A DNA stretch of 64,000 nucleotides. It comes from a virus. The stretch covers positions 1-64,000 of the IMG/VR virus record IMGVR_UViG_3300020045_009879, one strand, 5' to 3'. The notes below the pieces were generated by a model. The model saw only the letters and a program-made list of their open reading frames with translations. It ran no database searches and was not told the DNA's origin. Made by a program: the position numbers and the translations under genes. Of the stretch, positions 2,194 through 11,505 are shown piece after piece (the first letter of the stretch is position 1; each line of letters starts with the position of its first letter).

Positions 2194-2481
2194 ATGCATA
2201 GATGTTTTAGTTGTATTACCGTCCACGGTATGGAAAATGGTATCGCAAGGCTTTCTCAACAACACTACAGGTTATCAAAAGATGATCTTGGTGAAGAATA
2301 TAGAAGTGAGGAGTCTATCAGGCGTATAAATATAAGCATTCGGCCGGACGAAACTCGTAAAAGCTTATTCAACCGTCTAAATCGTGCCGAAACATGGCTT
2401 ATCAATATGGATGGGAAATTAGAAAAGTCAACCAATAGTTATGTTAATGTTGTTGAATCATCATTGGTTGATCTGGATTAA
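2194..2481 (+). CDS. hypothetical protein
   Basis: 95-aa ORF. Confidence 0.55.
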   Translation: MHRCFSCITVHGMENGIARLSQQHYRLSKDDLGEEYRSEESIRRINISIRPDETRKSLFNRLNRAETWLINMDGKLEKSTNSYVNVVESSLVDLD

Positions 2482-2490
2482 TTAGTTACC

Positions 2491-2517
2491 ACTCCTGAGC
2501 ATGAGTAAAAAGGCTCA
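2491..2517 (+). ncRNA. small H-type pseudoknot motif, copy 1
   Basis: actc-ctgagcat-gagt-aaaaag-gctca; loop tgagc pairs with gctca. Confidence 0.6.
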
Positions 2518-2566
2518 CCTAAAAGTAGTTTTACCATTCTATTCACACAAAAATGGCTGCACCAGC

Positions 2567-2738
2567 ACTTCATTTATCATTAGCTATTTCTCAGCCCATC
2601 TTTCCCGATCGAGAAGGCGTACCGCTGGCTTAATTATGAAGAAAGACTATCTTACCCAAACTTAGTTAATTGTTTTGTAGCTGCTCATTCTGGTCGGCAC
2701 ATTACAAGGATATCGGTCTAACTAAGCTGATAGAAGTG
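2567..2738 (+). ncRNA. putative multi-stem structured RNA (~170 nt)
   Basis: Closing cacttc..tatca / tgata.gaagtg; internal cttagtta/taactaag and cagc/gctg stems; no long ORF. Confidence 0.45.
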
Positions 2739-2953
2739 ACCTAGGGTAATACCAAAACTATGCACTGTGAGTTAATCGATTTGGAAATATCCAATGATAT
2801 TAAAACAGTGACCTCTCCAGCTAAGCATGATGCTGAATCAAGAGAGACTAAAACCGAAAGTATTGCAGTAATGAAATCCCAAGTATGACTAGTTGCAAAT
2901 AGTTATAGCAAGAGAGTAAGCTACCTTGGTAAGGTTACAACCATTATAATTAT

Positions 2954-3031
2954 GCTCCTGGACATGAGGGAGAGGCTCAACCAAAAGGATGATTAGTGCA
3001 CTGATAACATATGGTTCGAATCCACGGGGCT
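2954..3031 (+). tRNA. highly degenerate tRNA-like element
   Basis: gctcc/ggggc ends, tgg-TTCGAAT-cca T-loop; no canonical D or anticodon arm. Confidence 0.3.
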
Positions 3032-3114
3032 CAAAGATGATGAAATAGTAATATAGTAATCATGAAAAGGGCAGCGCAATAGCCAAGGGAATGGCCATTA
3101 ATCATCCCTCATAT

Positions 3115-3141
3115 ATTCCTAAGCATGAATTAAAACTGCTC
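3115..3141 (+). ncRNA. small H-type pseudoknot motif, copy 2
   Basis: attc-ctaagcat-gaat-taaaact-gctc. Confidence 0.55.
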
Positions 3142-3153
3142 CCCTGATTTTCA

Positions 3154-3228
3154 AAAGAGATAATAATCACTTGGATCTATGATTATGATATTGGATATAA
3201 AATGAGGGTTCAATTCCCTCTCTCTCTA
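3154..3228 (+). tRNA. degenerate tRNA-like element (75 nt; acceptor and T arm retained)
   Basis: aaagaga/tctctct acceptor (6/7 paired), gaggg-TTCAATT-ccctc T arm; D and anticodon arms non-canonical. Confidence 0.45.
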
Positions 3229-3428
3229 CAGCTATGCAATATTGCACAAAACAATTAGCACCATTGCCATGAAAAAGAATCTATAAGCTTTAATTAAGTA
3301 TTATGAAATAACCATTGGCTAATACAGTCTAGTGGCTTCCTAAACACAAATAAAACTATTAGGAGGTAATTTGTATGCCGTTGATATTAAAATGGCTGGA
3401 CGTGCGAAGACGGTGTCGCATAATATTA

Positions 3429-3504
3429 GGGGAGGTCTTCTAAAGTAGGATATTAGCGTGTCTAGACAAGACTAATGATGTGAGGTCATCTCTCACCCTC
3501 TCCA
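3429..3504 (+). tRNA. tRNA-like cloverleaf with enlarged anticodon arm
   Basis: ggggagg/cctctcc acceptor; ttct/agga D stem; tattag/ctaatg stem with 15-nt loop; gtgag/ctcac T stem with atypical 7-nt loop gtcatct. Confidence 0.5.
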
Positions 3505-3508
3505 CAAA

Positions 3509-3600
3509 GCAGAAGCTCATTGGCTCGCAAAGCGAATATTGTGAATGTAATATTTGGTTAATCATGATAACTTCAGTGCACAAACATAGTAAACTTCTGC
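3509..3600 (+). ncRNA. putative structured RNA closed by gcagaag/cttctgc
   Basis: 7-bp closing stem and internal aatattg/taatatt hairpin. Confidence 0.35.
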
Positions 3601-3871
3601 CCCTAAATAATGGTGAGAGTTAGTCATGCTCTCTTAAATGACATTTAGAAAAATATCAGCCATTATTTTTTATTTAACAACAACTAAGCCATATATTATG
3701 TCCATAAAAATATTATCGCCAGTAAAAATAAGTACTAAGACTAGTAATTCGTCAAAGAATGTTAAGTCCAGTCGAATACTAAAAATGAATATTAAACAGT
3801 TAACAACCGATATTCATAATAGAATACGAGAAGATAATTCATTAGGAAAACATTTATTCATATAAAGATTT

Positions 3872-4039
3872 AAACTCTTCCACTGAAGACAGACAGATAA
3901 ATGGTTAATCTACTACTACAAATCAGTCCTTAGCTAAAAGGATGTTGTCTGGGGTAAGATATTATAATTTGAATAACGTCTAATAGGCGGAGAATCTTAT
4001 TAGAAATATTCCACGTTAGCATTGTGAATGGGAGAGTTT
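3872..4039 (+). ncRNA. putative multi-stem structured RNA (~170 nt)
   Basis: Closing aaactcttcc/gggagagttt; internal cagaca/tgtctg, tcctt/aagga, tctaatagg/tcttattaga. Confidence 0.45.
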
Positions 4040-4048
4040 TTAAAACAT

Positions 4049-4235
4049 AAAACAAATAGTTATTGCATAGAAGCACATACATAAATGGCAGTGCTGAAAG
4101 AGAGCCTATCTAATGGAAATAGCTACCAAACGGATGGCAAGGCTGTAATGCCGAGGTCCCTGCTCTATTTTGCATAATATCAGGTGAGGCTTAATTAACC
4201 TCTGTAAAAACTAACGTCAAATAATTATTTGTTTT
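4049..4235 (+). ncRNA. putative multi-stem structured RNA (~185 nt)
   Basis: Closing aaacaaatagttat/ataattatttgttt; internal agcac/gtgct, ggca/tgcc, gagg/cctc. Confidence 0.45.
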
Positions 4236-4251
4236 TCAAAATAAAATGGAT

Positions 4252-4346
4252 TGGGAAGTAGCTCAATGGTAGAGCCCTTCATCGTAAGGCGTGTATTTAT
4301 ACAGTGACTGGAAGGAGATGCAAAGTTCGATTCTTTGTCTTCTCGC
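4252..4346 (+). tRNA. tRNA-like RNA with a 30-nt anticodon loop
   Basis: tgggaag/cttctcg acceptor, U8A9, canonical D arm gctc-aatggta-gagc, ccttc/gaagg stem around 30 nt, caaag-TTCGATT-ctttg T arm; no encoded CCA. Confidence 0.7.
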
Positions 4347-4384
4347 AATGGCAATAATGCCAGTTAATTTAATATTGTAATGCT

Positions 4385-4783
4385 ATGGCAAACACAAAGA
4401 GAGTGCAATATGTGCGCTCACAACCAGAATTTGTATTAAAGGATAAATATTTATCCCCAAAAGGGATGAGGATGATGGCTGTTTTGTCCAAAAAGATAAC
4501 CGAAGACACATCCATTACGCCTAAACTACGCAAGCATATTGAGAAAGAAATTTGGGCTAAATATGGCAAAAATCGCTATACCGTTAACCCAGAAAGCGTA
4601 ATTATCAAAGGCATCATTCACACAACACCATTGGCTGGTAACATAGCCACTAAAGAAGAACTGCCTCCGGTAAAATCAGCACCAGTAGAAAAATCTAAAG
4701 CTAAAAAGTCCTTTCTAAAGACATTGGCAGGCATTGTAGGTATGTTATTGATCATTCTTGGTATTAAAAAACTAATACAATGA
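4385..4783 (+). CDS. basic protein with C-terminal transmembrane anchor
   Basis: LAGIVGMLLIILGI tail. Confidence 0.7.
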   Translation: MANTKRVQYVRSQPEFVLKDKYLSPKGMRMMAVLSKKITEDTSITPKLRKHIEKEIWAKYGKNRYTVNPESVIIKGIIHTTPLAGNIATKEELPPVKSAPVEKSKAKKSFLKTLAGIVGMLLIILGIKKLIQ

Positions 4784-4938
4784 GAAATCATTTTACCTCT
4801 ACAGCTGCCGTTAGAAGACAAAAAGTCTCTGACAATAGTAAATGTGTATGCTATACTCCACAATGCAGATTATCCTGTATAATGGACAGAATAGCACCAA
4901 AGAAGCATACATTTATCAAAAAACATCGCTAATATAAT

Positions 4939-4966
4939 GTCCTAAGCATGACGATAAAAAGGCTTA
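4939..4966 (+). ncRNA. small H-type pseudoknot motif, copy 3
   Basis: gtc-ctaagcat-gac-gataaaaag-gctta; 7 nt upstream of ATG 4974. Confidence 0.6.
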
Positions 4967-4973
4967 AACTATT

Positions 4974-5132
4974 ATGAGAACAGTAATATTATTATCTGGC
5001 CTAGCAATTGCTCAAGCTATAAGGGTTGACTGGTATAATAAGGATTCAGTTGGTGTGTATTTTATTATATTGTTATTTTGCATAATAATGGATCTTATTG
5101 AATTTCTGTATAATACACATAAAAAATCATGA
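4974..5132 (+). CDS. small membrane protein (52 aa; not in ORF track)
   Basis: MRTVILLSGLAIAQAIR...YFIILLFCIIMDLIEF; ATGA overlap with the next gene. Confidence 0.6.
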   Translation: MRTVILLSGLAIAQAIRVDWYNKDSVGVYFIILLFCIIMDLIEFLYNTHKKS

Positions 5133-5479
5133 CAATTACACCAAAAGTAACGATAAGGCTTTTTAACAAACTTAAAAGTCAAAACATTCTATATAATTTA
5201 GATTTTCCACACAATGATCGATCAAGATGTACAGCTTATTGCGTTGCATACTCTTGTGAATCTCCAACACAAATAAATAAATATAATAAATTATATTTCA
5301 GAAAAACAGATAATAATGGATGGAATCTACGTGATCGTAATTCACATGGTATTATGATTTTTGATCCAAAAGAAAACCAAAATCTAGACAGAAACTGCTA
5401 TTGGGCCGTAAATATAACGCCAGAAGTAGCCAAAGAGTTTTTGCGACAACGAAGAGAATATCTTAAGACAAAAAAATAA
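5129..5479 (+). CDS. hypothetical protein (paralogue of 707..1006)
   Basis: Shared motif pattern. Confidence 0.7.
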   Translation: MTITPKVTIRLFNKLKSQNILYNLDFPHNDRSRCTAYCVAYSCESPTQINKYNKLYFRKTDNNGWNLRDRNSHGIMIFDPKENQNLDRNCYWAVNITPEVAKEFLRQRREYLKTKK

Positions 5480-5611
5480 TCATGTGGAAAACATTTGTCT
5501 ATATTCTACTATCAGGCATAGCCGGAGTCAATACTATTACTATTACCGAGATTAAAACTGATGCTCGAGTACATATAACAAGCACACATATAACTTATAT
5601 TTTCGAATAAT

Positions 5612-5881
5612 ATGAAAGAATTACTCTTAGCACTTTTAAATGCAGCAAATAAACTATACCCCATGCGTGGAATACATACAAGTTGGTGTACTGCGGGATC
5701 ATTTTCTAACGAAGGCAAAATATATGGTTTTATAATTGAAGGCAATAGAGGCACGCTTAGACGTATTGATATTGGCACCAAAGAGAATGAATGGTTTGAT
5801 GTTATTAAGACAGGGAACAAATTCACTACTATCATTCATAACGGAATTAAATATGACATACAGCCAACACTACAATTATGA
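5612..5881 (+). CDS. hypothetical protein
   Basis: ORF; ATGA overlap with next gene. Confidence 0.65.
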   Translation: MKELLLALLNAANKLYPMRGIHTSWCTAGSFSNEGKIYGFIIEGNRGTLRRIDIGTKENEWFDVIKTGNKFTTIIHNGIKYDIQPTLQL

Positions 5882-6234
5882 AACTTATCAATAGTAAAGC
5901 CTTTTACAAAGCCGCATTAAGAAAATATGGTGGTATGATCATACTGCCCCATACTGAAACACCATGGGGCAGTATTAGTTATCCAATGAAATTTATTGGA
6001 GTCAATTTGGGAGGTAAATTTCTTTTTGCTTGTAACGGGTGCGGTAGTCTAATATTAAGTGGCACAAATGTATATATTCGCAATGGAAAACCCAAGCAAG
6101 ATTCTTCTGGTCGCAATGTTAATTTTTTAGCACTCTCAGCACATCAACGAGGTCTTGATTTTTTAGAAAAAATATATCAATCACAAAAACCAATACGTTA
6201 TGAGGAAATATTTTCTGATACGTTTCACCTATGA
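5878..6234 (+). CDS. hypothetical protein
   Basis: ORF in coupled string. Confidence 0.65.
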   Translation: MKLINSKAFYKAALRKYGGMIILPHTETPWGSISYPMKFIGVNLGGKFLFACNGCGSLILSGTNVYIRNGKPKQDSSGRNVNFLALSAHQRGLDFLEKIYQSQKPIRYEEIFSDTFHL

Positions 6235-6385
6235 TAAAGAAATTATGGGTGATAATGCCACTCCAATAATACAAGTGTCTAAAAAGCGCTTATTTGTGGA
6301 AGCAATAGGCCTTAATGCTGCCTGCAGGAAAATTGTGGGGCAATATTCTAATGCAAGAATGTTTCATGATCTAACGATACGATAA
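6200..6385 (+). CDS. hypothetical protein
   Basis: ORF; TAATG coupling to next gene. Confidence 0.6.
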   Translation: MRKYFLIRFTYDKEIMGDNATPIIQVSKKRLFVEAIGLNAACRKIVGQYSNARMFHDLTIR

Positions 6386-6630
6386 TGAAAATATTAATCG
6401 GTGGTTATGCAATAAATACCAAACATATTATTGCGATATCAAATATTACCAATAAACGAAACAAATATGACAGATTTAGTGTAATGTTTATCAATAGAAA
6501 AACAATTACATTTGATTGCACATGTACATTATCGGAAGAAACAATGAATAAAAAACAATTAGAATCACTCAGAAGCCAGTTAATTAAAGTATGGGGACAT
6601 GAAAATGATATTAAACACATTATGCCATGA
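6385..6630 (+). CDS. hypothetical protein
   Basis: ORF in coupled string. Confidence 0.65.
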   Translation: MKILIGGYAINTKHIIAISNITNKRNKYDRFSVMFINRKTITFDCTCTLSEETMNKKQLESLRSQLIKVWGHENDIKHIMP

Positions 6631-7199
6631 AATCACATACAACAATCAGAGAAACAGGAGCATTCCTCTTAATATTTATTGTCATAGCACTATTTTTTAT
6701 GGCTGCATTTATGTGGAAAGAATAATATTATCGCTGTCATGGGATGGCGACGTGTGTGGTTAGTTGTTATACAAGGGAGAAGTGTAAAAAACTTCTCCTG
6801 CGTATAAAATAATATTTAAAATATCACTCTCGTGGATATCGCGTATATAAGCCATGGTTTTATAATCATCCATAATATATTTGCCAAAGGTACAAGCCCG
6901 ACACGCCAAGTATCTATCTAATAGAGAAACAACACTAGACACGCACCAAGTTCATTTATTTTATGATGATAATACGTCAAAACAACTAAAAAACCTTCCA
7001 CACAGATAATACTTTATATACATAATAAGTTAAAAGTAGATTCTGTAAATAACACAATCCCGTTGTAGGTTAGCGGGATTAAAATATTTAAAGGTAGCTA
7101 CCTCAAGGCTATGCCGTCGTTGAGGCGTACTTTAAACATCTTATAGAATAACTATCTACACAGAAGGCGAAACTAATAAAAAATTAAAATAACTACACC

Positions 7200-7439
7200 A
7201 TGGATAAGAAAATTGGAGATAAATTTATTTACACAGATAAAGACGGAAGAAAACATCAGTTATTAATTGTTGAAGATACTTTAATTGACTGTACTAAATG
7301 TTTCTTTGGAAATGGTGCAAAAGTAGCCCATCCATGTAAAATTAGTCAAAGGATTGTAGGCAGATGCACTGGTTCAAGAAGAACGGATGGTAAATATATT
7401 AATTTTATTATATTACGATCACAAAAACTTAAACAATGA
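7200..7439 (+). CDS. small Cys-rich protein, family A
   Basis: KKIGDKF.Y...CTKCFF...C...GRC...RTDGK.I.F. Confidence 0.75.
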   Translation: MDKKIGDKFIYTDKDGRKHQLLIVEDTLIDCTKCFFGNGAKVAHPCKISQRIVGRCTGSRRTDGKYINFIILRSQKLKQ

Positions 7440-7669
7440 TACAGCGCAAACAGGGGGAAAAATTTGTCTTTACAGACATAACAAATGAAGATAAATATCT
7501 TATAAAAACAATTTTACATACTGGTGACCCAGAAAAACATTGTGAAAAATGCTTTTTTAATGATTATTTTTGCGAAGAAGCGACGGACTTAACTGGGTCA
7601 TGCATAGAGCCATCCTTAACTTTTTTCTGTATAAAAACTAAAAAACACACACATGAAAGCAAAATTTAG
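7436..7669 (+). CDS. small Cys-rich protein, family A
   Basis: RKQGEKF...CEKCFF...C...GSC. Confidence 0.75.
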   Translation: MIQRKQGEKFVFTDITNEDKYLIKTILHTGDPEKHCEKCFFNDYFCEEATDLTGSCIEPSLTFFCIKTKKHTHESKI

Positions 7670-7755
7670 ATTATTAGTGATATCACATTGTAATAAAAAC
7701 TGTCCACCACCTATCGACGAAGATTTTATGCAACTAGAAGAGTTATTTTAAGCAT

Positions 7756-7992
7756 ATGAGCAGAAAATTAATTTTTAAAGATTCCATTGATGGATGTCAA
7801 TATCTCGTGAAAAAAATGGGACCATATGATACTAATATAAATTGTCCCGCATGTTTTAGATGGAATCACATAGCAAGCTTTAAGTCCAATAGTGTAAATT
7901 GTGCTGAAATTGATAATAAACTTCAATGTAGATCTAAAATAAAAAATTGGCAATATTTTTATTTTAAACTAATTAAATTTAAAAAAACATGA
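7756..7992 (+). CDS. small Cys-rich protein, family A (divergent)
   Basis: CPACF...C...C...YFYF. Confidence 0.65.
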   Translation: MSRKLIFKDSIDGCQYLVKKMGPYDTNINCPACFRWNHIASFKSNSVNCAEIDNKLQCRSKIKNWQYFYFKLIKFKKT

Positions 7993-8198
7993 ATTCAACA
8001 AAACTTTTATTATGGTTTATATTTACAATTATTATAATTGGGATCACTATTTTTATTATCGTAAAAAAAAGAACCAAATGCATTCATGAATATGAGTATT
8101 ATGTCCTTAGAATGAAAAAACATTCTTACTCCTCAATAATTCACTCTACTGTCATATCAAAATGCAAACTATGTGGGCATATAAAAGATAAAACATGA
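7989..8198 (+). CDS. small membrane-anchored Zn-ribbon-like protein
   Basis: N-terminal TM helix, C.H.Y...CKLCG. Confidence 0.65.
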   Translation: MNSTKLLLWFIFTIIIIGITIFIIVKKRTKCIHEYEYYVLRMKKHSYSSIIHSTVISKCKLCGHIKDKT

Positions 8199-8473
8199 AA
8201 ATATATATGGAAAGAACACTGAATACCATGAAAAACACATGCATAATAAGAATATTCAAAAAATTTCTCATAAAACATAGGGCATATGAGGCATATTGCG
8301 AGGCAATGAATGAAGAATGTGATAATATATACGCAAAATTAATGAAGTCAGATAATCCATATAATTTCGTCGGTGGATATTTCTCATGGGAGGAAACTGC
8401 AAAAGAAAATGATTTTTGGGCTGATCTGGATGATGAATGGAATATGTTTTTAGATAATTATTTAAAACTATGA
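8195..8473 (+). CDS. hypothetical protein, family B
   Basis: IFKKFL...AY...FSW...W..L..W..F. Confidence 0.75.
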   Translation: MKIYMERTLNTMKNTCIIRIFKKFLIKHRAYEAYCEAMNEECDNIYAKLMKSDNPYNFVGGYFSWEETAKENDFWADLDDEWNMFLDNYLKL

Positions 8474-8760
8474 AAATACCATTAAAAATATTCTTACGTT
8501 TCCTTAAAAAAGAAAAGTGTTTTGATGCGTATATTACAGCATGCAAAGAAGATAAAAAACTTCATTATCGTGACCGTCCAATGTTAGAATATATGCACAA
8601 TATGTGCATCATAGACGATAATAAAAAATGCAACGAAGATTCCCTTATTCAGTCTTTTGACTGGGATGAATTTCCTCTTGATAAAGGTCTAGATTATACT
8701 TGGTGGGATATATCTGAAAAATGGAAAACATTTATAAAATATGAAGAAGAAGATAGCTAA
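8470..8760 (+). CDS. hypothetical protein, family B
   Basis: IFLRFL...AY..AC...SFDW...W..I..KW..F. Confidence 0.75.
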   Translation: MKIPLKIFLRFLKKEKCFDAYITACKEDKKLHYRDRPMLEYMHNMCIIDDNKKCNEDSLIQSFDWDEFPLDKGLDYTWWDISEKWKTFIKYEEEDS

Positions 8761-9058
8761 AAAAGTATTCCTTAATTTCCTGCGAAAGAATAACTGTTTA
8801 CAGGAATATCTCATGGCATGTAAGAAAACCAATTTAGAATATAATAATGCCACAAAATCCAATATATCATTAAGGTCTTACTTACAAAAAAGAGAAATCA
8901 TGGATAAGGATAATAATTTCAATGTGGGTAGCATATGTAATTCATTCACGTGGTCTAAATATCCAATAAAAAAAGGCAATGTCAGCAATTGGAAAAACTG
9001 GAAAAACCTACATGAAAAATGGAATGATTTTTTACACAATAATAATTTTGAATGTTAA
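8741..9058 (+). CDS. hypothetical protein, family B
   Basis: VFLNFL...EY..AC...SFTW...W..L..KW..F. Confidence 0.75.
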   Translation: MKKKIAKKVFLNFLRKNNCLQEYLMACKKTNLEYNNATKSNISLRSYLQKREIMDKDNNFNVGSICNSFTWSKYPIKKGNVSNWKNWKNLHEKWNDFLHNNNFEC

Positions 9059-9108
9059 ACGCAAAAGAATGCGGAACATAAAAATAATAATAATTTAAAA
9101 CAAAAATA

Positions 9109-9387
9109 ATGACAACAAGATTACAGCGTATGGTAGTTAAGGTCAGGTGGCAATATTCACCAGACAGAATTCAAACAACATGTTTCCTCGATTCACTATG
9201 GGGAGAGGAATCTTCAAGTATTTCATCCGGCACAGCAACAAAATCTAAGAAAGATCAATTTGAGTATGAAAAAGCACGTAAAACATCTTTAAAACGCGCA
9301 TTAGCCGCCTCTGATCTTAACAAAGAAGAAAGAAGTGAGATATGGGTAGCATATTTCTCCAGAAAACCAGCAAAAGTAGTTGTATAA
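9109..9387 (+). CDS. hypothetical protein
   Basis: ORF followed by terminator. Confidence 0.7.
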   Translation: MTTRLQRMVVKVRWQYSPDRIQTTCFLDSLWGEESSSISSGTATKSKKDQFEYEKARKTSLKRALAASDLNKEERSEIWVAYFSRKPAKVVV

Positions 9388-9389
9388 AT

Positions 9390-9412
9390 AAGGGGGATTA
9401 ATTTCCCCTTTT
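9390..9412 (+). terminator. intrinsic terminator
   Basis: aagggg-gattaattt-cccctt followed by tt. Confidence 0.6.
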
Positions 9413-9426
9413 AACTCAATAATCCA

Positions 9427-9672
9427 ATGGAAAAACATATAGAAGTAAATGGAATAAAATATAAGCCAGTAAAAATTGCAGATATTAGAAAGGAAATATC
9501 ATTTACAACAAATGTCAAGGGATGCGGATTTTGCTCATTTGCACAAAATACTAATAAAGCCTGCGTTTTAGCTCATGAATTACGTCCCTGCGTCAAAATA
9601 AGTCTTAGTGTTTTCATGGACAAAATTCTATACATAAAAACATTCAAGCATAAATATAATCCATACAAATAA
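9427..9672 (+). CDS. small Cys-rich protein, family A-like
   Basis: CGFCSF...C...C. Confidence 0.65.
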   Translation: MEKHIEVNGIKYKPVKIADIRKEISFTTNVKGCGFCSFAQNTNKACVLAHELRPCVKISLSVFMDKILYIKTFKHKYNPYK

Positions 9673-9673
9673 C

Positions 9674-9961
9674 ATGCAAAGGAAAATAGGGGAATCATTT
9701 ATATACGAGCACGTTAAATTGGTTGTATTTGCGTATAATACTAAACATATACCAATTAATAGGGATGATAAAACACATAAATGTTATATTTGCATTTTTG
9801 GGTCAAAGGGAAATACACAATTTGCATGTCACTGCGGACGAGGAGAACATGTAAGGGGTGAGTGTGGTCCAAACAGGGTCTTTTGGGACAAAGAAGAATA
9901 TAAAAAATTCACCAGAGAACAAAAAGCATTAATATCTACAAATCCAAATAAATTTAAATAA
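9674..9961 (+). CDS. small Cys-rich protein, family A
   Basis: MQRKIGESFIY...CYICIF...C.C...RGEC. Confidence 0.75.
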   Translation: MQRKIGESFIYEHVKLVVFAYNTKHIPINRDDKTHKCYICIFGSKGNTQFACHCGRGEHVRGECGPNRVFWDKEEYKKFTREQKALISTNPNKFK

Positions 9962-9962
9962 T

Positions 9963-10229
9963 ATGGCAATTTTATCACCAATAGACAAACGAATCTTAGA
10001 ATGTGCAAAGAGGGTCTTAAGAGACAAAACAAGCGTCGTTATGACTAGGGGAGTTATATTTGACTCACAATTCAAAAGCCTCGTTAATATCGCCTTAAAA
10101 TGCGATCTAACAGACGCCATGCTTAAGGAAGAAATGGAATATCTATGTAGGCAGGAATGCCTAGATCTTATTGTCAAAAATGACAAATATGGAGATGAAA
10201 CTACACACTTTATAGGAGACGCAGAATGA
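9963..10229 (+). CDS. hypothetical protein
   Basis: ORF in coupled string. Confidence 0.65.
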   Translation: MAILSPIDKRILECAKRVLRDKTSVVMTRGVIFDSQFKSLVNIALKCDLTDAMLKEEMEYLCRQECLDLIVKNDKYGDETTHFIGDAE

Positions 10230-10392
10230 AAAGGGCTGAAAGCAAGAAAAGATATAAAAAAAGGAATGTCATATATGTGGAAACTAAATATGGTGATTTT
10301 ATCGATGAATCTGAATATGGTATGACTCAGCAAAAAAATGCCATGTCTGAAAAAGAATTAATTAAATACGGATTTAAATTAATAAAATAATT

Positions 10393-10737
10393 ATGAAACA
10401 TTTATTTGTGTCATATGAATTAACTTTAAAGCTAAAGGAAAAAGGATTTGATGAAGAGTGTTTAGGACTCTATTATAAAGATGGTTCATTTGCCTATAAT
10501 CCAGATAGTGATGTGTTTGTTGGTGCGCCTCTTTATCAACAAGTAATTGATTGGTTTAGAGAGAAACATAATATTTATATTGAAATTAAATTAGGAATAA
10601 GAAATAATCTGCTATATATAGGAGAAATTTATACTATAAGAGACACCTATAAAAGTAATATCAAACTAACTAATTATTTTGATTCTTATTATAAAGCTTT
10701 AACAGAAGCTATTGAAGAAACACTTAAATTAATCTAA
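10393..10737 (+). CDS. conserved Bacteroidota-phage hypothetical protein
   Basis: FVSYEL..KLKEKGFDEECL..Y...APLYQQVIDWFREKH motif. Confidence 0.75.
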   Translation: MKHLFVSYELTLKLKEKGFDEECLGLYYKDGSFAYNPDSDVFVGAPLYQQVIDWFREKHNIYIEIKLGIRNNLLYIGEIYTIRDTYKSNIKLTNYFDSYYKALTEAIEETLKLI

Positions 10738-10739
10738 TC

Positions 10740-11033
10740 ATGATACAAAAACATCAAACAGCATGTTGTGCACTATGCCAGCTTACAGCATCAAATGAAG
10801 ACTCTCTAGAGGCACTAGATGAAGCTGTAAATAAGATTAAAAAAAGTGCAAATAGGTTGTGGACGCCAGTAGATAAAAGCGGAGGGGAACGCGCAATCTA
10901 TGTAATAGTAGCACCCGGAGAATCTAAACTGGAAAATAATTTAGAAAGACTTAATTTCTGTCTAATAGCAATTTTTCAAAGAAGAAACGGTTATATTAAC
11001 GGCCAGCTAGGAATGTGGATGTTAAAATTTTAA
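10740..11033 (+). CDS. hypothetical protein (CCALC motif)
   Basis: ORF in coupled string. Confidence 0.65.
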   Translation: MIQKHQTACCALCQLTASNEDSLEALDEAVNKIKKSANRLWTPVDKSGGERAIYVIVAPGESKLENNLERLNFCLIAIFQRRNGYINGQLGMWMLKF

Positions 11034-11034
11034 C

Positions 11035-11505
11035 ATGGCAATAAAAAGAATCTACACCGATGGCAGTTGTCTCCAGAATCCAGGTCCAGGAGGATATGCA
11101 TTAATTATAGTAAAAGATGATGAAGTTCTAGAAATCAAGCAGTCATACTCACCACACACTACAAATAACCAGATGGAACTTTTAGCAATTAGGGATGCTA
11201 TAATATATTGTATTAATAAAAATATATCTGAATGTAAGATATACAGTGATTCACAATATTCAGTATTTGGAATTAATCAGTGGATGCATAAATGGATAAA
11301 AAATAGATGGAAAGGAAGTAAACATACCGTTATTGCCAATGTAGAGATATGGCAAGAGGTATATTCCTTATGGGAAAATGCTAAACAAAAACTCAATATA
11401 TCAGTCCATTATATTAAGGGTCACGCAGATAATAAATTTAATAATCTTGCCGATAAAAAAGCAAGAGAAATAATACATTCTTATGATACAAATCAAAAGA
11501 AATAA
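11035..11505 (+). CDS. rnhA: ribonuclease HI
   Basis: YTDGSC..NPGPGG, TNNQMEL, SDSQY, KGHA..N..AD catalytic motifs. Confidence 0.95.
   Translation: MAIKRIYTDGSCLQNPGPGGYALIIVKDDEVLEIKQSYSPHTTNNQMELLAIRDAIIYCINKNISECKIYSDSQYSVFGINQWMHKWIKNRWKGSKHTVIANVEIWQEVYSLWENAKQKLNISVHYIKGHADNKFNNLADKKAREIIHSYDTNQKK

Follow-up and report, generated by a model that had tools for sequence, protein, structure and literature searches.

A divergent freshwater-1 RNA and tRNA-derived elements in the early region of a crAss-like phage

Positions 4049–4235 of the contig analysed here encode a predicted structured RNA that is a divergent, full-length relative of freshwater-1, and the stretch around it, 2485–4350, reads as a tRNA island of the early (+ strand) region, derived or relic and decayed in part. 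We put the probability of this reading, taken jointly with the release and self-pairing mechanism set out below, at roughly 0.6. The island contains one 187-nt RNA, tRNA-derived elements, one small protein gene and an AT-rich spacer with a repeated 10-nt motif. The window, meaning the whole stretch of DNA analysed, covers the initial 64 kb of an IMG/VR contig that is 95.9 kb long. On protein homology its source is an uncultured crAss-like phage; a 2609-aa protein of the contig matches putative RNA polymerases of crAss-like, Bacteroides, Flavobacterium and Cellulophaga phages. For annotation, this yields a single RNA gene and a single small protein gene, plus four tRNA-derived features.

The 187-nt RNA and its family

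4049–4235, + strand: structured RNA of 187 nt, extended freshwater-1 family (Rfam RF02979, model R1, covariation)
4120–4125, + strand: self-complementary hexamer UAGCUA, candidate kissing-loop site (family loop comparison)

The RNA is closed by a 16-bp stem, P1 (4049–4064 with 4220–4235), which exceeds the longest stem in every one of 200 shuffles, and its conserved core spans 4062–4211. The Rfam freshwater-1 model covers 4149–4209 (61 nt, all 62 model positions 1–62), and both freshwater-1 hairpins are present together with the CCCUGCUCU, UGCA, A-CAGG and UAAAA segments. The score is 39.3 bits (E 8.1e-7), below the gathering score of 72 that canonical members pass (for example L023, 84.7 bits). 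At gathering thresholds the whole window gave no Rfam match, and the Rfam comparison raised with the original prediction yielded sub-threshold hits, namely RF02979 and the tRNA model RF00005 (26.1 bits at 4253–4345 and 25.9 bits at 3154–3228, both below the cut-off of 29). We built a covariance model of 155 positions, R1, from 28 other phage sequences, with the window excluded. R1 recognizes the window RNA at 75 bits (E 1.2e-14) over model positions 1–155 of 155, and each of its features (P2, P3, P4, UGAAAG, the internal hairpin and the two 3' hairpins) has a counterpart. The RNA also fits the family dimensions, with a length of 187 nt, a motif offset of 109 and a stem of 16 bp. This module, one of several that had been proposed from the sequence, is thus real, with a closing stem beyond the shuffles and homologues that covary.

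Family members are ~190 nt long (176–209 nt), and a terminal stem of 9–19 bp joins their 5' and 3' ends. Rfam's 62-nt freshwater-1 motif, which starts ~105–111 nt from the 5' end, makes up the 3' third; the catalogued motif is the mere tail of a multi-helix RNA. Beyond the Rfam model the family has three more helices that covary, the invariant segments UGAAAG and ACAKA, the long terminal stem, and an internal hairpin whose loop is palindromic. Compensatory changes occur in 24 of the 32 pairs, and 95.1% of cells pair, where shuffles give 74.9%. For covariation the family scores 0.575 versus 0.19 in shuffles, none of 500 of which reaches its value, and slid controls gave 0.05–0.11. The check for covariation therefore turned out positively for the family of 4049–4235. 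The sequence of the closing stem differs from lineage to lineage. A constant closing-stem cassette was ruled out, every closing stem being unique within its own locus.

The motif was found in 66 viral contigs, nearly all of them within same-strand tRNA arrays. On the upstream side, a genuine tRNA ends −1 to +3 nt from the closing stem of the RNA in 33 of 46 distinct family loci; on the downstream side, a tRNA starts 3–8 nt from the closing stem in 22 of the 46. A freshwater-1 RNA is thus usually bounded to the nucleotide by tRNA ends. The window is looser than these arrays: a tRNA-Thr-like element lies 17 nt downstream of the RNA, and nothing tRNA-like lies upstream. The nearest relatives of the window RNA (L058, L019 and L070) have no flanking tRNA-like element, so tRNA punctuation is not obligatory in the family. 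Judging from where matches occur, the family is phage-specific. A search of 185,579 species genomes gave 17 pattern matches, which is close to the chance expectation. L079, from a 2.9-kb MAG contig, was the sole strong match to R1 (133 bits), and L084 and L089 scored ~26 bits. A metagenome scan for the TTAATTAA-loop subtype added two new contigs only, both unrelated.

The hexamer UAGCUA occupies the 3' side of the internal hairpin loop, above a UGG/CCA stem. Among 49 distinct family members, the aligned loop is UAGCUA, UAAUUA, UCAUGA, UGAUCA or ACUAGU in ~27 and the non-palindromic UCGCAA in ~21, so self-pairing cannot be family-wide. Loop hexamers that vary yet stay self-complementary suggest that the RNA may pair with its own copies, a directly testable hint of dimer formation.

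Two further resemblances were considered and rejected. A second copy of the RNA at ~3395–3455 would share only an 18-nt repeat (3418–3435 and 4172–4189); the repeat is not a second copy, because R1 finds a single copy only and nothing there. For a likeness to RNase P RNA (ACAGAA, GAAAG), the segments in question pair differently, and Rfam gave no RNase P match.

tRNA-derived elements

2951–3034, + strand: element a (ARAGORN at relaxed thresholds only; T-arm search)
3154–3229, + strand: element b (Rfam tRNA, 25.9 bits; ARAGORN at relaxed thresholds only; T-arm search)
3430–3505, + strand: element c, weak and tRNA-shaped (ARAGORN at the 80% threshold only)
4253–4346, + strand: element d, tRNA-Thr(CGU)-derived (ARAGORN with introns; Rfam, 26.1 bits; T-arm 4321–4337)

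The 95.9-kb contig contains no canonical tRNA gene (default ARAGORN gave 0 in the window). We searched both strands of the whole 64 kb with a strict T-arm pattern, a 5-bp stem with G53-C61 and the loop TTCRANY. It gave three sites versus 0.79 expected, all on the + strand (3010–3026, 3204–3220 and 4321–4337), and all three fall inside 2485–4350. ARAGORN calls tRNA-Thr(cgt) at 4253–4346 when introns are allowed and, at relaxed thresholds, poor cloverleafs at 2951–3034, 3158–3229 and 3430–3505. The T-arm sites and these intron-allowed or relaxed calls together bear out the four tRNA-like elements that had been read from the sequence.

The elements differ in quality. Element a has a canonical GGTTCGAATCC T-loop region, 5 of 7 acceptor pairs, a long variable arm and a 6-nt anticodon loop. 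Element b has a perfect T arm (GAGGG-TTCAATT-CCCTC), 6 of 7 acceptor pairs and U8A9; its D stem is over-long (7 bp) and its anticodon loop is not normal, being either 8 nt or a mini-hairpin. Element c is the one of which we are least sure. Its T stem has 5 bp and carries the non-canonical loop GTCATCT, its acceptor stem contains mismatches and its anticodon stem is mismatched, and neither the T-arm search nor the Rfam tRNA model found it. Element d has near-canonical acceptor, D and T arms, with a U-U mismatch at acceptor pair 7-66. A 23-nt insert (4288–4310) carrying a 4-bp UGUA/UACA mini-hairpin enlarges its anticodon loop to 30 nt. With the insert deleted in silico, default ARAGORN calls tRNA-Thr(cgt). 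This element sits where other phages have ordinary tRNAs, downstream of the RNA. A scan of viral sequences for D-arm/T-loop pairs with extra spacing returned many odd tRNA-like genes, none of them related to element d.

A 7-nt anticodon loop on a 5-bp stem is absent from all four elements, and as predicted from their folds they cannot read codons. Recognition based on the T arm is biased, so the pattern of an upper half kept and an anticodon arm lost may simply be the appearance of a decaying gene.

Coding potential and the remaining modules

2485–2950, + strand: AT-rich spacer, holding the proposed modules 2567–2738 and 2763–2810 and ORFs of 54 and 42 aa
3698–3865, + strand: conserved protein-coding ORF of 55 aa (homologues P0010 and P0011; codon score)
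3872–4039, + strand: candidate RNA module, closed by an 11-bp stem and containing a 9-bp hairpin (z −1.83)

Positions 4385–11033 are filled by abutting + strand ORFs, a chain without a break, and 2485–4384 holds short isolated ORFs only. The low coding density claimed for 2485–4350 is therefore confirmed, while the further claim that the stretch has no convincing ORF fails at 3698–3865. This 55-aa ORF has two 53-aa homologues, one of 76% identity (P0010) and one of 73% identity that is present on 6 contigs (P0011). A 2-codon indel relative to the homologues is in frame, the C-terminus is identical, and the codon score of 0.15 is similar to that of neighbouring genes; PHROG gave no match. The 42-aa ORF at 2760–2888 has no homologue, and the two library matches of the 54-aa ORF at 2501–2665 were rejected as compositional artefacts without a BLASTP alignment. 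An AGGAGG box with a 22-codon mini-ORF can be read at 3361–3444.

The stretch had been described as tiled by RNA modules closed by long-range stems. Stems of at least 9 bp spanning 50–230 nt number 8 in the region, compared with 5.9 ± 2.5 in shuffles and 5–16 in equal lengths of flanking coding sequence. The closures at 2567/2738, 2763/2810, 3509/3600 and 3872/4039 (5, 6, 7 and 11 bp, respectively) are thus within chance, since the long-range stems match the shuffled and coding counts. Only the closure of 4049–4235 stands out, and one segment of the supposed tiling is the conserved protein gene, so the tiling itself is not supported. Folding energies add nothing to the modules either: their z values against shuffles are −0.44, −0.69, −1.83 and −1.17, and z averaged over a sliding scan is −0.30 within the region and −0.43 beyond it. 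This test is powerless here, because the validated 187-nt RNA itself has a single-sequence folding z of ~ +1.

When every segment of 2485–4360 was compared with ~70 phage loci by blastn and nhmmer, only the RNA at 4049–4235 matched; elements a–d had no homologue. The module at 3872–4039, whose z is the best among those first proposed and whose 11-bp stem is within chance, had no homologue among the 70 loci. The spacer at 2485–2950 had no DNA homologue among them; its z is −0.44, its closing stems are 5–6 bp, and both of its short ORFs are non-conserved. Most likely, what is left of the proposed modules is spacer or sequence particular to this lineage.

Proteins with 63–68% identity to those of the phage (P0004–P0008), together with the 73–76% identity of P0010 and P0011, indicate that related contigs exist. 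No relative was found among viral contigs through the two flanking small proteins or the helicase, nor through an alignment of a 326-aa protein or one of the 55-aa ORF. Blastn in distant mode gave no match between 2300–4500 and the phage collection.

Probable release of the RNA, rival readings and known systems

2495–2504, + strand: CTRAGCATGA copy 1, with a 5-bp hairpin (2496–2500 with 2513–2517), 13 nt past the stop codon of the upstream gene
2821–2830, + strand: copy 2, exact CTRAGCATGA match
3119–3128, + strand: copy 3, 35 nt upstream of element b
4942–4951, + strand: copy 4, beyond the reported interval, 10 nt past a stop codon, with the next ORF starting 32 nt downstream

From its context, the conserved RNA is probably released by tRNA-processing enzymes. 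The region would be part of early-gene transcription, and its tRNA-shaped elements would be where RNase P and tRNA 3'-end enzymes of the host cut; the scans of the early ORFs with Pfam and PHROG found no RNA-processing enzyme. These cuts would free the conserved RNA, whose 5' and 3' ends pair into a terminal stem that would protect it. Once mature, it probably binds another copy of itself through the UAGCUA loop hexamer, and the product may act as a stable particle, like other phage tRNA-island RNAs. The original prediction had several RNAs cut from a polycistronic transcript through tRNA-like RNase P/Z signals. For one RNA this has comparative support (33/46 and 22/46 loci flanked upstream and downstream); the other modules lack such support. 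The decoy or anti-defence role suggested for the products is speculative. A more specific version is tentative and a minority possibility: the ~190-nt RNA would be a self-pairing, RNA-only phage particle joined by a kissing loop and cut out by host tRNA enzymes, and the tRNA-derived elements, among them a tRNA-Thr whose anticodon arm has been rebuilt, would be kept purely as cutting marks for the RNA and its neighbours, all decoding tRNAs having been lost.

The array may instead be a pure graveyard that decayed once the phage's own tRNAs were unneeded. The four elements would then be dead and without a processing role, and only the 187-nt RNA and the 55-aa gene would be functional, each with its own start and stop signals. 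This account is conceivable, though we do not favour it. The 95.9 kb without a canonical tRNA, the mismatched acceptor stems and scrambled arms of elements a–c, the chance-level long-range stems and folding energies of the spacer, and the relatives of the RNA in L058 and L019 that lack tRNA-like neighbours all agree with it. However, in element d the acceptor, D and T arms are all intact and the sole lesion is a clean 23-nt insert; the element also lies at the site that working tRNAs occupy in 22 of the 46 family loci. Moreover, 1.2 kb of dead sequence would be unusual because phage genomes are compact.

The spacer could also be mainly regulatory. The CTRAGCATGA hairpins would then be phage-specific promoters, terminators or processing sites between early transcription units, and the modules would be 5' and 3' UTRs and micro-ORFs. 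CTRAGCATGA occurs as four exact copies in the 95.9 kb, all on the + strand and none elsewhere, where ~0.2 are expected and the reversed control gives 0. Copies 1 and 4 form the same 5-bp hairpin, with one compensatory change (G-C to A-U in copy 4). The two pseudoknot copies described earlier accordingly survive as a short repeated element, in four copies, that reads as a hairpin and not as a pseudoknot. The positions of the copies suit a regulatory role, two being 10–13 nt past a stop codon and two 32–35 nt ahead of the next gene or RNA element, as do the AGGAGG box and the mini-ORF. Against it, the motif has no sigma-70 or Bacteroidota −7 consensus at a constant spacing, neither the distant relative L058 nor any other locus compared contains it, and the tRNA-derived elements are left unexplained. 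Sigma-70 promoter and terminator scans were uninformative. As the main account of the stretch, a regulatory spacer is rather unlikely. It is compatible with the tRNA-island explanation, and both can hold.

That 4253–4346 is a working tRNA-Thr(CGU) gene with a removable short intron, through which the island would still supply a decoding tRNA, is very improbable: the insert fits the canonical 37/38 position, without it ARAGORN makes a default-quality call of tRNA-Thr(cgt) that has U33 and a loop of 7 nt, and insert-bearing tRNA-like genes are frequent in viral contigs, but no bulge-helix-bulge can be drawn around the insert, its 23 nt fall far short of a self-splicing group I intron (and Rfam gave no group I match), the contig has neither an RtcB ligase nor a tRNA splicing endonuclease (tRNA_int_endo), acceptor pair 7-66 is a U-U mismatch, and ARAGORN's intron mode makes many doubtful calls. 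Bacteria are not known to have an enzyme for introns of this kind.

The tRNA-island reading, which we prefer, places the window RNA beside other RNAs of phage tRNA islands. The T4 RNAs species 1 and 2 (rnaC and rnaD) are transcribed and processed together with the tRNAs of their cluster. Like freshwater-1 RNAs in tRNA arrays, they are non-tRNA RNAs adjoining same-strand tRNA genes; they are stable and measure 139 and 119 nt. In the NC_000866 annotation, rnaD starts 1 nt past tRNA-Arg. They differ in having neither sequence nor structure homology to the 187-nt RNA, R1 finding nothing at rnaC and rnaD of NC_000866 with filters off, and T4 has eight working tRNAs, whereas the contig of the present phage has none.

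GOLLD and ROOL are encoded by phages, in many cases close to tRNA islands, and build homo-oligomers of RNA alone (Kretsch et al. 2025, PMC12286853). Judging by its palindromic loop hexamers, the freshwater-1 family may self-pair too. However, GOLLD and ROOL are ~600–800 nt or more and unrelated to the 187-nt RNA, and neither gave an Rfam match in the window at gathering thresholds or in 2300–4500 at E up to 5.

The freshwater-1 motif itself (RF02979) comes from the supplement only of Weinberg et al. 2017 (PMC5737381), and the literature searched describes neither a function nor an extended structure for it. The 3' 61 nt of the window RNA align to all 62 positions, with both hairpins and the CCCUGCUCU, UGCA and CAGG segments, but the Rfam model is 62 nt and the RNA ~190 nt, and the window copy scores 39.3 bits where the cut-off is 72. 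Phage tRNA islands carry abundant RNAs of unknown function (T4 species 1 and 2, GOLLD, ROOL), and freshwater-1 is one more. Here a crAss-like phage without a working tRNA keeps the RNA and a tRNA-shaped neighbour, and the window is thus a natural contrast case and useful for testing tRNA mimics as processing signals.

The conserved RNA at 4049–4235

At curated thresholds, Rfam gave no match anywhere in the window. A relaxed search returned three meaningful matches, all sub-threshold: freshwater-1 (RF02979) at 4149–4209 (39.3 bits, E 8e-7; cut-off 72) and two to tRNA, which are discussed below. A DNA pattern drawn from the freshwater-1 core identified 66 viral contigs, and in nearly all of them ARAGORN placed the motif within a same-strand tRNA array. 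In every lineage the motif forms the 3′ third of an RNA 176–209 nt long, whose ends pair in a 9–19-bp stem of lineage-specific sequence. A closing stem constant within one phage was looked for and not seen.

Alignment of 30 sequences revealed homology from end to end, extending to UGAAAG, ACAKA and UAGCUACC, segments that lie outside the search pattern. RNAalifold predicted 32 pairs, and compensatory changes occur in 24 of them. Pairing was found in 95.1% of cells versus 74.9% when shuffled, and the covariation score was 0.575 versus 0.19 (none of 500 shuffles as high; slid controls, 0.05–0.11). Covariation among homologues is strong for this family, and Rfam freshwater-1 is only the last 62 nt of a larger RNA, the extended freshwater-1 family. 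The family is phage-specific: a pattern scan of 185,579 species genomes produced 17 matches, about the chance expectation, and just one, on a 2.9-kb MAG contig, was strong to the model.

The window copy is 187 nt long and is closed by a 16-bp stem (4049–4064 with 4220–4235). Its freshwater-1 motif is offset 109 nt from the 5′ end, a layout shared with other lineages. A covariance model of 28 sequences, with the window left out, matched 4062–4211 at 75 bits (E 1.2e-14) over 155 of 155 positions; all its further window matches were noise. By its layout, the family covariation and the full-length match to a window-free model, 4049–4235 is a real RNA gene, a full-length though divergent family member. 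An 18-nt repeat (3418–3435 and 4172–4189) was considered as a second copy of the RNA and rejected, as the family model finds one copy.

tRNA-derived elements and the RNA ends

ARAGORN detected no tRNA in the window. The two sub-threshold Rfam tRNA matches lie at 4253–4345 (26.1 bits) and 3154–3228 (25.9 bits; cut-off 29). A strict T-arm search of both strands of the 64 kb gave three sites against 0.79 expected, all on the + strand and within 2485–4384. The four elements of the stretch are as follows.

2951–3034, +, element a: good T-arm; D and anticodon arms abnormal
3154–3229, +, element b: good T-arm; D and anticodon arms abnormal
3430–3505, +, element c: weak
4253–4346, +, element d: near-canonical acceptor, D and T arms; 5-bp anticodon stem around 30 nt

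Four tRNA-like elements had been proposed; a, b and d stand by their good T-arms and c is weak, and recognition by T-arm skews such a sample toward an intact-looking upper half. When the 23-nt insert of element d (4288–4310) was removed in silico, default ARAGORN read a tRNA-Thr(CGU). Splicing of this insert as an intron is unsupported because it shows no bulge–helix–bulge, is far below group I intron size, and neither RtcB nor a splicing endonuclease is encoded on the contig. Rfam at gathering thresholds found no group I intron across the whole window.

Across the family, a tRNA 3′ end falls −1 to +3 nt from the closing stem in 33 of 46 distinct loci, and a tRNA starts 3–8 nt past it in 22 of 46. 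In the window, element d begins 17 nt past the conserved RNA, in the slot of ordinary tRNAs in other phages. RNase P cleavage and tRNA 3′-end processing would release the conserved RNA, and its liberation by tRNA-processing cuts is the simplest reading of the gene layout. The suggestion that tRNA mimics serve as RNase P/Z signals fits for one RNA, 4049–4235, and lacks comparative support elsewhere in the stretch.

Three other loci (L020, L039 and L066) carry a conserved tRNA-like sequence 0–90 nt 3′ of the closing stem, with a canonical T-arm (TGGG-TTCGATT-CCCA) and missed by default ARAGORN, so non-canonical tRNA-like neighbours are not peculiar to the window. At another locus (L014), 0–130 nt 3′ of the RNA, a partial copy of the gene's 5′ half, acceptor plus D-arm, stands ahead of a tRNA-Gly, which looks split by insertion or duplication. 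The viral contigs of loci L095–L165 hold dozens of tRNA-like genes with D-arm TAGCTCAATGGTAGAGC and 16–35 extra nt ahead of the T-loop. In many, the anticodon loop is of the CUUAUAC type and the variable arm is long; others have big anticodon-region inserts. Directly after element d and before a 132-aa ORF, a small hairpin containing GC pairs and trailed by a T-rich tail (TGGCA-ATAA-TGCCA, 4349–4362) could be a terminator or processing site.

The remainder of the stretch

The original prediction described the stretch as tiled by modules closed by long-range stems. Eight stems of ≥9 bp occur in it, versus 5.9 ± 2.5 in shuffles and 5–16 in equal-length flanking coding sequence. The 16-bp stem alone is longer than every shuffled one, and 4049–4235, which also has homologues and covariation, is upheld as a module; the other four closing stems (2567–2738, 2763–2810, 3509–3600 and 3872–4039) are not unusual by either comparison. 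Folding energies of the modules and of sliding windows were unremarkable. Folding better than shuffled sequence was not seen, and this test is uninformative here because the validated RNA fails it too. Homologues of all other segments of the stretch were absent from ~70 phage loci. Outside the stretch, the lowest folding z-score of any 150-nt segment in the first 9 kb (−5.8, at 1851–2100) is probably due to sequence repeats, not RNA structure.

A repeated element does exist, and is probably what had been taken for two pseudoknot copies:

2495, 2821, 3119 and 4942, +: CTRAGCATGA, four copies in the 95.9-kb contig

The reversed motif occurs nowhere in that contig. At 2495 and 4942 the motif lies 10–13 nt past a stop codon, and these two copies share a 5-bp hairpin with an A-rich loop of 12–14 nt, in which a single G-C pair is replaced by A-U in compensation. 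We read the motif as a putative regulatory or processing signal borne on a hairpin and, as no other locus has it, specific to this phage lineage.

Coding density is low, as predicted: 2485–4384 has short isolated ORFs only, whereas abutting ORFs run unbroken over 4385–11033 (+). The claim of no convincing ORF does not hold, as a 55-aa ORF (3698–3865) has 53-aa homologues on other contigs (76% and 73% identity), differing by an in-frame two-codon indel with the C-terminus unchanged. Homologues of ORFs 2501–2665 and 2760–2888 were sought and none was real. A 22-codon mini-ORF (3376–3444) that extends into element c has a strong Shine–Dalgarno-like box (AGGAGG) 8 nt upstream of its ATG (segment 3361–3444), a type of box absent before other genes of the phage.

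The window comprises the first 64,000 bases of an IMG/VR virus record of 95,871 bases (CheckV completeness, 64%), and its GC content is ~33%. The left 35 kb form a + strand block in which small early ORFs come first and replication genes after them; farther right, the window encodes giant proteins on the − strand. An RNase H gene (11035–11505; Pfam PF00075, E 2e-35) is the first of the replication block, right after the early small-ORF chain. A 2609-aa protein shows distant similarity (~24% identity) to the 'putative RNA polymerase' that is found in crAss-like phages of Bacteroides, Flavobacterium and Cellulophaga. By this resemblance the phage is crAss-like, and its host probably belongs to the Bacteroidota.

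Overall, a derived tRNA island is the best description of the stretch. Its contents are one solid gene for a structured RNA, a tRNA-Thr-derived neighbour at the processing-signal position, one small protein gene, two or three more tRNA relics, and spacer with a lineage-specific motif. What was originally observed is partly confirmed and its interpretation partly supported.

Loop self-complementarity and comparable phage RNAs

Helix P4 of the family RNA contains an internal hairpin with a covarying 3–4-bp stem and a hexamer on the 3′ side of its loop. This hexamer is self-complementary in ~27 of 49 distinct members, in five forms: UAGCUA (the window's copy among them, at 4120–4125), UAAUUA, UCAUGA, UGAUCA and ACUAGU. 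The non-palindromic UCGCAA occupies the position in ~21 of 49. Because a six-base palindrome cannot pair with itself within one loop, and self-complementarity outlasts sequence change, the pattern points to pairing between two RNA copies in the style of a kissing-loop dimer.

The placement of the family RNA against tRNA genes recalls the T4 tRNA cluster, where the stable RNAs rnaD and rnaC adjoin tRNA-Arg, although these have no homology to the extended freshwater-1 family. GOLLD and ROOL are phage RNAs near tRNA islands that were recently demonstrated to form RNA-only homo-oligomers (PMC12286853). The analogy is suggestive rather than proof: the extended freshwater-1 RNA is likewise found near tRNA islands and is a candidate for self-pairing.
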